From: a virus
Lineage: Duplodnaviria; Heunggongvirae; Uroviricota; Caudoviricetes
Strand: one strand, 5' to 3'
DNA: 4,714 nt
IMG/VR virus record: IMGVR_UViG_648276652_000010
Span: 1-4,714 of that record
Shown one piece after another: positions 1 to 4,714 of this stretch. A program made the position numbers and the translations under genes. The notes under the pieces are model-generated. The model made no database searches, had not been told where the DNA came from, and worked only from the letters and a program-made list of their open reading frames with translations. Numbering within the stretch: the first letter of the stretch is position 1; every line of letters starts with the position of its first letter.

Positions 1-232
<232 letters not shown>

Positions 233-263
233 CTGTTATTTATGCCAAAAATAAAGGCCACTA

Positions 264-464
264 TCAGGCAGCTTTGTTGTTCTGTTTACCAAGTTCTCTG
301 GCAATCATTGCCGTCGTTCGTATTGCCCATTTATCGACATATTTCCCATCTTCCATTACAGGAAACATTTCTTCAGGCTTAACCATGCATTCCGATTGCA
401 GCTTGCATCCATTGCATCGCTTGAATTGTCCACACCATTGATTTTTATCAATAGTCGTAGTCAT
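264..464 (-). CDS. ral: Ral restriction-alleviation protein (66 aa)
   Basis: ATG at 464 (minus). Product MTTTIDKNQWCGQFKRCNGCKLQSEC... matches my recollection of lambda Ral in sequence and length. It sits in the expected place downstream of N in the PL operon. Confidence 0.75.
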   Translation of the reverse strand: MTTTIDKNQWCGQFKRCNGCKLQSECMVKPEEMFPVMEDGKYVDKWAIRTTAMIARELGKQNNKAA

Positions 465-534
465 ACGGATAGTCCTGGTATTGTTCCATCACATCCTGCG
501 GATGCTCTTCGAACTCTTCAAATTCTTCTTCCAT
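448..534 (-). CDS. orf28-like acidic 28-aa peptide (MEEEFEEFEEHPQDVMEQYQDYPYDYDY)
   Basis: Not in the ORF track (too short). ATG at 534 is preceded by GAGGTG (revcomp of 539..544) at 4-nt spacing. Its stop TGA (448..450) overlaps the ral start by 17 bp, the same arrangement I recall for lambda orf28/ral. Confidence 0.5.
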   Translation of the reverse strand: MEEEFEEFEEHPQDVMEQYQDYPYDYDY

Positions 535-542
535 ACATCACC

Positions 543-707
543 TCAAATAAGTGGTTTGCTGCGAAAATAAATACGCTCCCACCAAGTTCCGTATCTATCT
601 ATCCAGTTACACCAATCATCGACACTCCATTTTGTTGTGTCGCATTTTGGCAATTGACATGAATATCTACCTTCTTTGTAAAGTCGGCGTTTGACTTTCT
701 TGAGCAT
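543..707 (-). CDS. Hypothetical small protein (54 aa; MLKKVKRRLYKEGRYSCQLPKCDTTKWSVDDWCNWIDRYGTWWERIYFRSKPLI)
   Basis: ATG at 705..707 (minus) is preceded by GAGGT at 5-nt spacing. The longer 74-aa track ORF begins with GTG at 767 and has no RBS. The stop overlaps the orf28 RBS. Trp/Cys-rich with no recognisable family. It occupies the interval where lambda has sieB. Confidence 0.35.
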   Translation of the reverse strand: MLKKVKRRLYKEGRYSCQLPKCDTTKWSVDDWCNWIDRYGTWWERIYFRSKPLI

Positions 708-770
708 GACTACCTCAATCGTAATAAGCTGGAATTGATTTTCCGCGTTGTTTCTGGCGACCAACACAAG

Positions 771-1154
771 TCACCTTGCTGTCAGTTGTTTTGATTTCCT
801 GTAGCCTGCCGCGTAAAGAGCTACATTTGGAAGACATACACCAGTTTCTGGTTGCCTATGCCCAAACTCATTCGCGTACACAATGGCCGCTCTCTCCAGA
901 TTGCGTCTGTATTCTTTCTGTTGCCAGATCACGTCCTGTGCCATGAACTTAATTGGCTTAGCGTCTTCTATGCGCTCAGGCGTTTCGTGAGTACCTTTAG
1001 CCTGAATCTGCGCTCTGCTTAGAGTAGGGCGGTGTAATACTTCTGAACTTATTGCTTCTTCGCGGGCCAGTACGCCGTTAGCTAATGCCTTTGCCTTTAA
1101 ACGCTCACGACGACGAGAACGTGAATTGCCTTTGAACTGAGTTCTGCGTGTCAT
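771..1154 (-). CDS. N: N-type transcription antiterminator, P22 gp24-like (127 aa)
   Basis: ATG at 1154 with AGGAGG 6 nt upstream. N-terminal arginine-rich motif NSRSRRRERLKAKALANG. The C-terminus ...LPNVALYAAGYRKSKQLTAR resembles the recalled P22 N terminus (...VALYAAGHRKSKQITAR). Lies directly downstream of PL and nutL. Confidence 0.7.
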   Translation of the reverse strand: MTRRTQFKGNSRSRRRERLKAKALANGVLAREEAISSEVLHRPTLSRAQIQAKGTHETPERIEDAKPIKFMAQDVIWQQKEYRRNLERAAIVYANEFGHRQPETGVCLPNVALYAAGYRKSKQLTAR

Positions 1155-1319
1155 ATAGACCTCCTGATGAACTTTGGTGGTGTGGTAGGTGGGAGACCCA
1201 TTTCGACCTGTTTCGGCCTACTTCAATTCGGCAATAGTCCCGCAGGCCTCGCCGCTTTACGTGCGACATATTCCCGTCCATGAACCCTTCACCACACCCC
1301 AAAGTTCACTTTGGTTATT

Positions 1320-1334
1320 GCGCTTTGTCAGCGC
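1320..1334 (-). promoter_or_regulatory. nutL boxB hairpin (GCGCUGACAAAGCGC, GACAA pentaloop, P22 type)
   Basis: Minus-strand sequence GCGCTGACAAAGCGC forms a 5-bp stem with loop GACAA, in the PL leader about 165 nt upstream of the N start. No canonical boxA (CGCTCTTTA) is visible upstream. Confidence 0.5.
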
Positions 1335-1402
1335 CGTAGATTCATATTCGAATCGTTGTATATTCACCGCCCTGGTGAGTAGTGCGTCCTGCTGATGTGT
1401 TT

Positions 1403-1465
1403 AGTATCACCGCCAGTGGTATTTATGTCAACACCGCCAGAGATAATTTATCACCGCAGATGGTT
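1403..1465 (-). promoter_or_regulatory. PL promoter with operators OL1 (1405..1421), OL2 (1429..1445) and OL3 (1449..1465)
   Basis: The three 17-bp sites tatcaccgccagtggta, caacaccgccagagata and tatcaccgcagatggtt match lambda OL1/OL2/OL3 as I recall them. Minus-strand -35 TTGACA is at 1426..1431 and -10 GATACT at 1403..1408, with a 17-bp spacer. Confidence 0.85.
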
Positions 1466-1610
1466 ATCTGTATGTTTTTATATAGATTTATTTTTTGCAG
1501 GGGTGTGTGGCTTGGGAGGTGATCGAGAGATCTGAATTGCGATGTTTAGTGAGTTGTATCTATTAATTTTCAAATAAATACAATTGGTTATGTGTTTTGG
1601 GGCGAACGTG

Positions 1611-1650
1611 AGGCAAAGAAAACCCGGCGCGGTGGCCGGGTTTATTTATT
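1611..1650. terminator. Intrinsic terminator hairpin, potentially bidirectional; t_imm-like end of the cI operon
   Basis: Stem cccggc (1623..1628) pairs with gccggg (1635..1640) around a 6-nt loop. The minus strand follows it with TTTTCTTTG and the plus strand with TTTATTTATT. It sits immediately 3' of the stop of the last cassette gene and before OL. Confidence 0.5.
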
Positions 1651-2296
1651 GCTTAGGAGCTTGTTGTGATGACGATTGGTTAGTTGGAGCGCTCGTTAAT
1701 GGTTGCTGTGTCGGTACCTGTATTATAATTGGAGCCGGGCTGGTTACTGATGGTGACTTGTCATTGCCGGAGATAATCCAACTTGAGGCTAACATCACGC
1801 CAGACAGAATCACAGTAACTAAAGTCAAGCCAACGGCCATCGCCCACTGAGTCGTTGTAAGTCCCGTTTTCAAACCGCCGATTTCACCTTTAATTTCAGC
1901 AATACCTCTCTCAATAGAAGAAAATTGCTGAGTATAATAGGTTTTAAAGTCAGCTGATTCGCGACGCATTTCCGCAGCAATAGACTCTACCTCTGATTTG
2001 TTTTGTGAAAGCTTTGCGTCAAGTTCTTCTCTGGACATTCCGCTCACGCTTACCTCCAGGGTATCACTCTTCATCGCTACATCTTCCTTACTTGGGCGCA
2101 AACCCGTTTCGTCCATGGCGTATGAAACTCTATTTGATACCTTAGCATCAATACCAATACTTTGGTACTGAGATGGATCCCCATAAGGAGAAACGGTTGT
2201 CGCTGCTAGGGTTGCACTAACTATAATACTTGGAAGAACTGATGATGTTGTTCCTGAGGTAGGTTGAACTGAAGAAACTGGCTTCAGTCTTTCCAT
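1646..2296 (-). CDS. Hypothetical membrane-anchored protein (216 aa): Ser/Thr-rich N-terminal region, central predicted coiled coil, one C-terminal TM helix, Ser/Pro/Gln-rich tail
   Basis: ATG at 2296 overlaps the stop of the upstream gene (ATGGAAAGACTGA), suggesting translational coupling. An alternative internal start at 2072..2074 has a strong AAGGAAG RBS and would give 142 aa. Hydrophobic segment AMAVGLTLVTVILSGVMLASSWII. Stop TAA at 1646..1648 abuts the terminator hairpin. Confidence 0.6.
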   Translation of the reverse strand: MERLKPVSSVQPTSGTTSSVLPSIIVSATLAATTVSPYGDPSQYQSIGIDAKVSNRVSYAMDETGLRPSKEDVAMKSDTLEVSVSGMSREELDAKLSQNKSEVESIAAEMRRESADFKTYYTQQFSSIERGIAEIKGEIGGLKTGLTTTQWAMAVGLTLVTVILSGVMLASSWIISGNDKSPSVTSPAPIIIQVPTQQPLTSAPTNQSSSQQAPKQ

Positions 2297-2550
2297 AGCC
2301 CATTATCCCTGAGAGCTACCTGTAATGATTTTACTAATGCAACAGCTTGATCCGGGCTCATTGAGACTGACATGTTAGGGGTCAACTCAACTTTTACTTG
2401 GAAGCTATTCTTTCCTTGCTCATCAGACTGCATGTGATGCTCAAATTCATGGCGGTAAAAAGTAATGATTGTTTCAGCACGATCAGGCGTAATAAGAACT
2501 GATGTGGCGGTCATGTGCTGAGGTATGATTTTAATAGTGTTATCTGACAT
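2284..2550 (-). CDS. Hypothetical soluble protein (88 aa; MSDNTIKIIPQHMTATSVLITPDRAETIITFYRHEFEHHMQ...)
   Basis: ATG at 2548..2550 (minus) is preceded by AAAGGA at about 6-nt spacing. The track ORF extends to an ATG at 2691 (135 aa), but that start has no Shine-Dalgarno. No recognisable family. The 3' end overlaps the next gene. Confidence 0.5.
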   Translation of the reverse strand: MSDNTIKIIPQHMTATSVLITPDRAETIITFYRHEFEHHMQSDEQGKNSFQVKVELTPNMSVSMSPDQAVALVKSLQVALRDNGLWKD

Positions 2551-2742
2551 AAGTATCCTTTTTGTTTCCTTAGTATTTTTTTGCATTGACATCAGAAATA
2601 GCGAATCCACAAGAGTATGAGTAAAGCTAATCAGTTTAGTGATACGGTGACTATTAAAGTGGTAAACCACATCAAAGCTCGCAGAGTGCATACCAGGCTG
2701 TCACACATGACAAAGTAACGAGGATGCCTGATCTCATAGCGC

Positions 2743-2898
2743 TCAAAGAGACATGCCGATAATGGCATTAACCACGCATGACGCCATAAACACGCCGCCA
2801 ACGATGAAGCTGGCTTGGTTCTTCCTGGTAGCGCCAAGAGTCAACAGAACCACTGAAAGGGCAAAAAAAGGTATCGCGATTATGCTGAACGTGTTCAT
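2743..2898 (-). CDS. Small membrane protein (51 aa; MNTFSIIAIPFFALSVVLLTLGATRKNQASFIVGGVFMASCVVNAIIGMSL), two predicted TM helices
   Basis: Not in the ORF track. ATG at 2896..2898 (minus) with GAGG at 5-nt spacing. Two hydrophobic stretches are separated by a basic loop, RKNQ. First gene after cI on the same strand, 77 bp downstream of the cI stop. Confidence 0.45.
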   Translation of the reverse strand: MNTFSIIAIPFFALSVVLLTLGATRKNQASFIVGGVFMASCVVNAIIGMSL

Positions 2899-2975
2899 GT
2901 TGACCTCAACTTATTTCGATTCTCCATCACCCTTAATCCGCCGCCCCATGTGTTTGTTGTGATTCGTTGCTGGCC

Positions 2976-3692
<717 letters not shown>

Positions 3693-3695
3693 TTA

Positions 3696-3765
3696 AATCT
3701 ATCACCGCAAGGGATAAATATCTAACACCGTGCGTGTTGACTATTTTACCTCTAGCGGTGATAAT
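3696..3765. promoter_or_regulatory. OR3 (3700..3716), OR2 (3723..3739), OR1 (3747..3763) with divergent promoters PRM and PR
   Basis: tatcaccgcaagggata and taacaccgtgcgtgttg match lambda OR3 and OR2. OR1 reads tacctctAgcggtgata, against lambda tacctctGgcggtgata as I recall it. PR -35 ttgact is at 3737..3742 and -10 gataat at 3760..3765. PRM hexamers lie on the minus strand at 3719..3724 and 3696..3701. Confidence 0.9.
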
Positions 3766-3780
3766 GGTTGCATGTACTAA

Positions 3781-3990
<210 letters not shown>

Positions 3991-3997
3991 GTAACAC

Positions 3998-4043
3998 CGC
4001 TATTTTCACAATGGACATTCGTCCTACGTCGCTGACAAAGCGA
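3998..4043 (+). promoter_or_regulatory. nutR: boxA-like cgctattttcaca (3999..4011) and boxB hairpin ucgcuGACAAagcga (4029..4043)
   Basis: The boxB has a 5-bp stem and GACAA loop, the same loop as the nutL boxB. It lies between cro and cII on the PR transcript. The pentamer CTACG precedes both boxB copies. Confidence 0.45.
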
Positions 4044-4128
4044 GTCCCAATATATCTGACCAACTAAGGCCATATGCGTTTCCACGCATACCTTTCAACT
4101 AGCTATTCACTATTGGAAATCATAAGAA

Positions 4129-4425
4129 ATGGAACAAACAAGTTACAGCAAACTATCCCAGCGTGACGTTGATCGCGCAGAAACAGATTTACTCATCAAC
4201 CTGTCAACGCTTACCCAGCGCGGTCTGGCAAAGATGATTGGCTGTCATGAATCGAAGATAAGCAGAACGGACTGGAGATTTATTGCTTCAGTCTTGTGTG
4301 CTTTCGGAATGGCATCAGACATCAGTCCGATTAGTAGAGCTTTTAAGTATGCGCTTGATGGAATCACAAAGAAAAAATCCCCGGTGGCCGCCGGGGACTC
4401 TAAGCAAATTGATATGCAATTCTGA
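4129..4425 (+). CDS. cII: CII-like transcriptional activator (98 aa), divergent from lambda CII except at the C-terminus
   Basis: In the lambda cII position. The HTH-like segment GLAKMIGCHESKISRTDW and the C-terminal ...KKKSPVAAGDSKQIDMQF parallel lambda ...NKKRPAATERSEQIQMEF. The 32-nt spacing to the O start matches lambda. Confidence 0.7.
   Translation: MEQTSYSKLSQRDVDRAETDLLINLSTLTQRGLAKMIGCHESKISRTDWRFIASVLCAFGMASDISPISRAFKYALDGITKKKSPVAAGDSKQIDMQF
4372..4397 (-). terminator. t_oop-like intrinsic terminator embedded in the 3' end of cII
   Basis: Minus strand reads GTCCCCGGCGGCCACCGGGGATTTTTTC: a 7-bp GC stem (4378..4384 with 4391..4397), 6-nt loop and a run of six T. Same position relative to the cII stop as lambda t_oop. 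Confidence 0.6.
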
Positions 4426-4448
4426 GGGAATTACTGGATCAATCAACA
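4372..4448 (-). ncRNA. oop: oop-like antisense RNA (about 77 nt), 5' end inferred by analogy to lambda
   Basis: The 3' end is defined by the terminator above. The 5' end is placed by lambda spacing only. The expected pO -35 would fall inside the IS629-like insertion. Confidence 0.35.
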
Positions 4449-4461
4449 GGAGTCATTATGA
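4446..4461 (+). pseudogene. O: Replication initiator O: RBS and start codon only, interrupted by IS insertion
   Basis: caggagtcattATGA matches the lambda O translation start. From 4459 the sequence is the IS left end rather than O codons. Confidence 0.5.
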
Positions 4462-4714
4462 ACCGCCCCGGGAATCCTGGAGACTAAACTCCCTGAGAAA
4501 GAGGTAAACAGAATGACTAAAAATACTCGTTTTTCCCCCGAAGTCCGTCAGAGGGCGATTCGTATGGTTCTGGAAAGTCAGGGCGAATATGACTCACAGT
4601 GGGCGGCAATTTGTTCCATTGCCCCAAAGATTGGCTGTACACCGGAGACTCTGCGTGTCTGGGTACGCCAGCATGAGCGGGATACCGGAGGCGGTGATGG
4701 CGGGCTCACCACCG
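4459..4714 (+). mobile_element. IS3-family insertion sequence (IS629/IS3411-like), left inverted repeat and 5' part; continues beyond the window
   Basis: TGAACCGCCCCGGGAATCCTGGAGACTAAACT at 4459 matches the IS629 left end as I recall it, followed by orfA with an AGAGG RBS. Confidence 0.8.
4513..4714 (+). CDS. IS3-family transposase OrfA (HTH, InsE-like), 3' partial
   Basis: [67 protein letters not shown]... is the characteristic IS629-type OrfA N-terminus. The frame is open to the window end. Confidence 0.85.

Follow-up and report, generated by a model that had tools for sequence, protein, structure and literature searches.

Organisation of the immunity region

The DNA analysed here (the window; 4,714 nucleotides, positions 1 to 4,714 of IMG/VR record IMGVR_UViG_648276652_000010) comes from a lambdoid prophage of the HK97 type, interrupted by insertion sequences at both sides, and spans its immunity region; over positions 1500-3000, identity to phage HK97 is 99.7%. 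On the minus strand, the window carries N (771-1154) and the oL/pL region (pL at 1431-1403) of a lambda-type immunity region, followed by a terminator, a three-ORF cassette and the cI repressor gene, with cro and cII on the plus strand. A pRM-type promoter (TAGATA-17-TAGATT, 3696..3724, minus strand), which scores 10.6 bits in a weight-matrix scan and ranks sixth in the window, adjoins the ATG of cI at 3689. The cI gene (2976..3689, minus strand), also annotated in HK97, encodes a repressor of the lambda immunity type with 237 aa.

Downstream of cI on the same strand lies a relic of the 3' end of another repressor gene (2911..2951, encoding ...HMGRRIKGDGESK and a stop). This sequence is the true C-terminus of a 129-aa HTH_3 repressor in the related loci L054 and L060, and the similarity of the window to L054, L060, L020 and L027 begins at 2949-2951, marking the relic as a recombination scar that travels with the gene behind it. 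That gene, orf51 (2743..2898), is the first ORF of the cassette; it starts 77 nt after cI, is preceded by a GAGG Shine-Dalgarno sequence at 2907-2904 (anti-Shine-Dalgarno pairing of -6.8 kcal/mol) and encodes a protein of 51 aa with two hydrophobic segments. The middle cassette gene is HK97 gp49 (2284..2550, 88 aa), the end of which overlaps the last gene, gp48 (1646..2296, 216 aa), by 13 nt. A hydrophobic stretch is visible near the C-terminus of the gp48 translation, which matches PHROG 5820, a family of unknown function. The repressor operon is closed by an intrinsic terminator of the T_IMM type at 1620..1643, to which a terminator scan assigns a stem of 9 bp, six of which are G-C pairs. 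The surrounding window DNA (1525-1646) shows 92.7% identity to lambda 35708-35829, a segment that directly follows rexB.

In HK97 itself (GenBank AF069529 / NC_002167), where Gp48 and Gp49 are the products of the two large cassette genes and occupy the positions held in lambda by rexB and rexA, the DNA is 99.7% identical, the order of cI, gp49, gp48 and terminator is the same, and gp49 is annotated from the same ATG with 88 aa; gp49 and its start are thus already known from the HK97 reference. The reference differs in leaving the 425 nt between cI and gp49 empty, as neither orf51 nor the mini-ORF described below is listed; both are also missing from RefSeq annotation. What is new here, and modestly so, are these two unannotated small genes and their place at the head of a slot with variable, often defence-related cargo. 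HK225 carries the same cassette block with another repressor ahead of it, and the block also recurs in 51 of 5,426 complete E. coli genomes.

A mosaic junction between orf51 and gp49

Between orf51, which ends with a TGA at 2745-2743, and the gp49 ATG at 2550 lie 192 nt (2551..2742), the same interval that the initial annotation had delimited and had regarded as noncoding if translation starts at 2550. Comparison with related loci resolves this gap into the four pieces of a mosaic seam: a 5-nt spacer, a 21-codon mini-ORF (2672..2737), an 18-nt relic tail of that ORF (2654..2671) and a 103-nt leader of gp49 (2551..2653). The leader is untranslated and has a size within the range of other gp49 lineages; the first 89 nt form part of the orf51 module and hold a tiny, truncated peptide gene, so that the reading of the whole interval as one noncoding unit is not supported.

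The boundaries follow from two sets of relatives. In all the divergent lineages, gp49 is found only 39-113 nt past the repressor gene with no 51-codon ORF in between, which implies that the extra DNA of the HK97-type locus has a separate origin. Conversely, window DNA from 2902 down to 2660 is ~92% identical to loci L057-59, in which gp49 is absent and a ParA-like ATPase follows orf51 as cargo, which assigns the opening 83 nt of the gap, with a TGA at 2703-2701 and an ATG at 2691, to the orf51 module. Similarity extends to 2660 in L057 and to about 2654 in the L083 type, and the latter position is where the ancestral mini-ORF ends; what then remains is the 103-nt leader (2653-2551), within the 39-113-nt range observed for gp49 elsewhere.

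No relative of the stretch 2659-2551 was detected in anything searched, and this unique part of 109 nt, with a GC content of 0.32, does not resemble the leaders of the divergent gp49 genes beyond shuffled controls. Gap DNA was likewise not found in chromosomal orf51 loci, in which the similarity breaks off exactly at the ends of the ORF. Every copy of at least 99.5% identity has the same 103-nt leader without variation, and conservation of the leader is for this reason uninformative either way. Mosaic junctions like this one are familiar in lambdoid phages, and the overall finding is an ordinary one. It carries a caution, in that a long open extension of a gene together with a sizeable gap in a phage operon can be the mere scar of a module exchange.

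A hydrophobic mini-ORF downstream of orf51

Five nucleotides past the orf51 stop, an ATG at 2737 opens a hydrophobic ORF of 21 codons (MRSGILVTLSCVTAWYALCEL) that ends with a TGA at 2674-2672. Beyond this stop, the same frame continues as C-G-L-P-L-TAA (2671-2654), and codon alignment with L083, L057 and L060 identifies these 18 nt as the relic tail of a longer ancestor. Codon 22 is TGG in L083, L132 and L133, where the ORF is intact with 28 codons (...CELWCGLPLK), TGA in the window and TAG in L057. By this comparison, the mini-ORF of the window is a copy of a 28-codon gene that a nonsense change at codon 22 (TGG to TGA) has shortened.

Several features point to a mini-gene in this frame. In pairwise comparisons between the window, L057 and L083, codon differences over the first 21 codons amount to 8 synonymous and 2 non-synonymous in the mini-ORF frame, compared to 0:10 and 1:8 in the other two frames. 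The version in L060/L061 is strongly diverged at the DNA level and has nonetheless kept the frame, the length up to the motif and the motif itself, W[YF]xLCELWC[GD]LPL, with a 1-nt deletion fusing the mini-ORF to orf51. In addition, a conserved hydrophobic ORF of 24 codons comes 4-14 nt after the chromosomal copies of orf51 in three Klebsiella species. A motif scan of IMG/VR returned no mini-ORF contigs beyond those already compared. In the locus studied here, the mini-ORF may be a pseudogene, since it is truncated, shows no Shine-Dalgarno sequence in an anti-Shine-Dalgarno pairing check, and is missing, by deletion or otherwise, from L088, L054 and L084.

Search for regulatory signals in the gap

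The gap had been suggested to be possibly regulatory and to carry an internal promoter or a processing site, by analogy with the internal promoter of lambda within rex. This proposal found no support in our scans of the interval, which contains no sigma-70 site above chance, no terminator, no Rfam match and no unusual structure.

An internal promoter in the gap, transcribing gp49-gp48 independently of pRM, would be the counterpart of lambda P_LIT, which lies inside the distal end of rexA at an equivalent place in the operon. Such a promoter would suit the AT-rich leader of gp49, and morons (laterally acquired phage cassettes) often carry a promoter of their own (PMC3594210). However, the best operon-strand site in the gap (TTGTCA-17-TGCACT, 2713-2685) scores only 7.1 bits, under the mean of 8.9-10.1 bits for shuffled gap sequence and far under pR (13.4 bits, rank 1 in the window), pL (13.1 bits, rank 3) and pRM; these values come from a weight matrix built on consensus frequencies of classical compilations, which covers sigma-70 -35/-10 elements and would let weak, activator-dependent or alternative-sigma promoters escape. 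The site moreover falls within the mini-ORF, in the part belonging to the orf51 module and 134 nt from the gp49 ATG, and thus outside the leader specific to gp49. A separate promoter scan found pR and pL and nothing in the gap, and the leaders of the five divergent gp49 lineages (39-113 nt), one of them just 39 nt long, contain no promoter-like site above chance. With no sigma-70 match above background upstream of the distal genes, as a promoter of the P_LIT type would present, we consider an internal promoter unlikely.

As another possibility, an RNA element, for instance a small RNA, an attenuator or a site processed by RNase III or RNase E, could uncouple gp49-gp48 from cI, and 192 nt of mostly untranslated RNA within an operon offer sufficient length for it. 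The predicted fold of the surrounding 210 nt (2541-2750) is, however, less stable than 192 of 200 shuffles (z = +1.59), and the single Rfam line (E = 0.48, an animal lncRNA family) lies outside the gap and is noise. No terminator-like site was detected within 2551-2742, the only one nearby being a weak stem of 5 bp within orf51 (2768-2753), so that the gap shows neither a known structured RNA nor a terminator or attenuator. Promoter-like sites on the plus strand reach 9.3 and 8.6 bits, which is within chance. A small hairpin, TGTCA-TGTG-TGACA at 2711-2698, is perfectly kept between the window and L057, but its location in the mini-ORF accounts for this conservation through coding constraint. 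An RNA element of this kind therefore appears distinctly improbable.

The same palindrome (TGTCA-N4-TGACA) was also inspected by eye as a LexA-box or CRP-like site and was rejected, because it belongs to the conserved mini-ORF and lacks an AT-rich centre.

The translation start of gp49

The minus-strand frame of gp49 is open, as first described, back to the ATG at 2691 (2284..2691, 135 codons), where the TGA at 2703-2701 bounds it upstream. Within this frame, starts are available at ATG 2691, GTG 2670, GTG 2610, ATG 2592, ATG 2586 and ATG 2550, and public databases annotate four different ones for identical DNA: 2550 is used by HK97 and most RefSeq records, 2586 by some RefSeq records and the PHROG profile, 2592 by the HK225 annotation and GTG 2670 by metagenome gene callers (P0001). 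Only ATG 2550 has a Shine-Dalgarno sequence, again in agreement with the initial annotation; AAGGA at 2560-2556, with a 5-nt spacer, pairs with the anti-Shine-Dalgarno at -5.4 kcal/mol, compared to -3.1 kcal/mol or weaker for the other in-frame starts and a background median of -2.2 kcal/mol.

Homologues provide further evidence. Five divergent lineages encode gp49 proteins at 66, 63, 45, 45 and 48% identity, the first two from Klebsiella and metagenomes and the remaining three (45-48%) from IMG/VR prophages. All five are 87-88 aa long and collinear from the first Met, and each start is preceded by AGGA, GGAG or AAGGA 6-8 nt upstream. In every lineage, an in-frame stop lies 12-42 nt upstream of the start, which makes an N-terminal extension impossible there. 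Consistently, family alignments (A3 and A4) show 21-27 invariant columns starting at M1. Together with the mosaic structure of the gap, this comparative evidence favours 2550 and opposes 2691, fixing the start amid at least four used in databases, and we conclude that gp49 is translated from ATG 2550, as the HK97 annotation has it.

By contrast, production of gp49 in an N-terminally extended form of 100-135 aa, from ATG 2691, GTG 2670, ATG 2592 or ATG 2586, is largely refuted and very improbable. The frame does stay open for 50 codons upstream, and longer forms appear in HK225, in some RefSeq records, in PHROG 26809 (which gp49 matches at E = 1e-69) and among metagenome gene predictions. Nevertheless, simulation shows that a 50-codon open extension is expected in ~4% of sequences of the same composition (P ~0.04), which is statistically unremarkable, and a search with the 135-aa form against 5.8 billion proteins yielded no homologue of the 47-residue extension except identical DNA. 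ATG 2691 itself sits in DNA that is also found ahead of unrelated cargo genes at loci lacking gp49, and in the window it is T-ATG-CA within the Tyr16-Ala17 codons of the mini-ORF, which uses another, conserved frame. The open frame up to this codon is thus best understood, from the sequence comparisons, as an accident of the recombination junction.

Run-length variation at the A7 run in the leader (2582-2576) bears on the same point. The copy in L027 has A8 instead, which breaks the extended frame by placing all upstream starts out of frame, with gp49 100% intact. A copy with A6 (L102) was discounted as evidence on the start, for the same assembly has an indel inside gp49; sequencing error is possible in such a homopolymer run, and we treat both variants as weak evidence.

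A plus-strand gene in the gap is barely credible: the 33-codon ORF at 2617-2718 exists and is annotated in HK225 as HK225_045, but its ribosome-binding site is poor according to the HK225 annotators, neither Pfam nor PHROG has a match to it, the mosaic breakpoint at ~2654-2660 cuts through it, so that L057 and L083 contain its 3' part without its start, and substitutions in the shared part follow the frame of the minus-strand mini-ORF.

A probable single transcript for the repressor operon

Since pRM and T_IMM are conserved and no internal signal was seen, a single transcript from pRM to T_IMM is the best-supported arrangement. We infer that cI, orf51, the mini-ORF, gp49 and gp48 would be carried on this message, ending at T_IMM, with pRE as an additional source of the transcript during establishment. 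As in lambda, the cI message would be leaderless. orf51 and gp49 would each be initiated independently at their own Shine-Dalgarno sequences, and the mini-ORF, if translated, might be reached through reinitiation after orf51. The 13-nt overlap of gp49 and gp48 is present in all five divergent lineages, in which the pair likewise lies just downstream of a prophage repressor gene, suggesting that translation of gp48 is coupled to that of gp49. Judged as a whole from sequence, the combination of a gp49 start at 2550, a mosaic gap and a single pRM-to-T_IMM transcript with no detectable promoter for the cassette is probably correct. A literature search returned nothing specific on HK97 gp48 or gp49, on transcription of the HK97 immunity region or on transcript maps of its lysogens.

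Comparison with known phage systems

One organisational parallel is lambda cI-rexA-rexB. In lambda, the pRM transcript of cI also covers rexA and rexB, a second promoter inside rexA, P_LIT, serves rexB as well, and T_IMM stops transcription. The cassette occupies the same place, directly after cI and before T_IMM, and expression from pRM along with the repressor would be expected here as well. The likeness is confined to genomic position, with no sequence relationship between RexA or RexB and the cassette proteins. It also does not extend to P_LIT, which lies inside a coding sequence, whereas the gap in the window is a seam between modules in which no P_LIT-like signal was found.

A second parallel is hex of phage 434, a small gene that is reported to be co-transcribed with the repressor from pRM in lysogens (PMC3564112); this would be the situation proposed here for orf51 and the mini-ORF. 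Hex differs in overlapping part of the repressor gene, while orf51 starts after cI has ended and encodes a hydrophobic, probably membrane protein.

Morons and mosaic junctions offer a third comparison. Phages with different repressors (HK97 and HK225) have likewise exchanged the cassette as a single block, and the junctions retain scars of former neighbours. In a classical moron, the gene is flanked by a promoter and a terminator of its own (PMC3594210). The cassette differs in both respects, as no promoter of its own is detectable and its only terminator is T_IMM, the terminator of the operon, which it shares with lambda-type operons.

The cassette genes gp49 and gp48

Searches with PADLOC, Pfam and NCBIfam returned nothing significant for gp49, gp48 or orf51, and hence no assignment to the RexAB type. 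An AlphaFold2 model of gp49 (pLDDT 80) shows a beta-sheet and a C-terminal helix; comparison with the PDB gave no significant match (best E = 0.18, TM <= 0.36) and no functional lead, and a scan of a genome collection with the gp49 profile gave no confirmed match. The position of gp49-gp48 suggests a possible role in exclusion expressed in the lysogen.

orf51 and the slot behind prophage repressors

A real, conserved gene is present in orf51 (2743-2898): its relatives across Enterobacteriaceae, with 67-98% identity, fall into over 30 protein clusters, each with a length of exactly 51 aa. It is common to prophages with several repressor types. In other lambdoid prophages, orf51 lies 11-15 nt past the repressor gene and is followed by differing cargo.

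A PADLOC scan covered the cargoes of L054, L057, L060/L061, L084 and L088. In L060/L061, orf51 is followed by genes of 220 and 134 aa with matches (PD-Lambda-2_B, E = 3.7e-50; PD-T4-9_C, E = 9e-11), with HigB ahead in L061. The genes of 183 and 309 aa in L088 match PDC-M63A (E = 1.1e-10), and the ParA-like ATPase of L057 has a weak match to PDC-M28B (E = 7.9e-9). No PADLOC match was obtained for the SDH-protease-like gene of L054 or for the genes of 98 and 269 aa in L084. In L083, small membrane ORFs follow orf51. Judging from these neighbourhoods, orf51 appears to head a post-repressor slot with variable, often defence-type, cargo. Going beyond the original finding, the position behind the repressor in lambdoid phages is apparently a site at which defence cargo is swapped, led by genes for tiny membrane peptides.

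A type I toxin-antitoxin system, in which a small hydrophobic toxin is paired with an antisense RNA, was considered for orf51 and the mini-ORF. Both encode hydrophobic peptides; the plus-strand promoter-like sites (9.3 and 8.6 bits) are within chance, and no Rfam antitoxin RNA was found.

A joint reading of these observations can be offered tentatively, although it is less likely than not. orf51 and the mini-ORF could be two tiny, conserved genes for membrane peptides (three genes in L083, L132 and L133) that together head the post-repressor slot in many lambdoid prophages, having a function of their own expressed in lysogens and at the same time providing shared homology for the swapping of defence cassettes, with gp49-gp48 as a two-protein exclusion system in the RexAB position. 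The cassettes that such a slot would have received are gp49-gp48, the PD-Lambda-2-like and PDC-M63-like genes, the ParA-like ATPase and the SDH-protease-like gene.

The slot after orf51

On the minus strand of the window, orf51 (2743–2898) is preceded by a good Shine-Dalgarno sequence and encodes a 51-aa product with two hydrophobic segments, a gene absent from the annotation of HK97, HK225 and RefSeq. Across Enterobacteriaceae, over 30 clusters keep a length of exactly 51 aa, and orf51 sits in chromosomes and also directly 3′ of prophage repressor genes. The cargo slot that follows it was found 3′ of at least four repressor types, and the genes filling this slot vary among prophages (comparison loci L054, L057, L060/L061, L083, L084 and L088). 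Several post-orf51 cargoes match PADLOC defence models (PD-Lambda-2_B, PD-T4-9_C, PDC-M63A and PDC-M28B), and the slot looks like a site at which defence cargo is swapped.

Traces of recombination surround orf51. Between cI and orf51 lies the 3′-end relic of a foreign HTH_3-type repressor gene (2911–2951, minus strand), ending in MGRRIKGDGESK and a stop codon; the same sequence forms the true C-terminus of the L054 repressor and recurs in L088, there downstream of orf51. Compared with window positions 2763–2941, locus L020 (IMG/VR 3300011823_000025) shows nine substitutions inside orf51, and none from the gap between orf51 and gp49 through gp48, a pattern implying that a recombination breakpoint falls where orf51 ends at its 3′ side. 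This breakpoint is consistent with orf51 acting as the shared homology for cassette exchange.

Directly after orf51, a hydrophobic mini-ORF (2654–2737, minus strand) runs for 21 codons in the window and ends in TGA. Its intact form has 28 codons (L083, L132 and L133), with codon 22 reading TGG, TGA or TAG depending on lineage, and an analogous 24-codon partner ORF accompanies chromosomal orf51 copies in Klebsiella. In L133 (metagenome PPYF01172052.1), orf51 and the 28-codon mini-ORF are followed by a third small hydrophobic ORF (beginning MREVLFFIAVTVISITAIFIW) with a T_IMM-like terminator directly 3′ of it, and this cassette thus consists of three tiny hydrophobic peptides only.

Junctions and edges of the prophage segment

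In the window, gp49 (ending in NGLWKD and a stop codon) overlaps gp48 (beginning ATGGAAAGACTGA) by 13 nt (2284–2296, minus strand). Because this overlap is kept in all divergent lineages, it suggests that translation of the two genes is obligatorily coupled. An A-run at 2576–2582 on the same strand differs in length among copies: most have A7, L027 has A8 and L102 has A6. Either true slippage or a sequencing error in the homopolymer could account for this variation.

The prophage in the window is probably defective. Insertion-sequence fragments flank the prophage segment on both sides: the left boundary (1–163, plus strand) is the part of an IstB_IS21 ATPase gene that encodes the C-terminal end, and the right boundary (4440–4714, plus strand) is a fragment whose HTH_Tnp_1 transposase OrfA begins at 4513, just 3′ of cII, where HK97 has gene 53.
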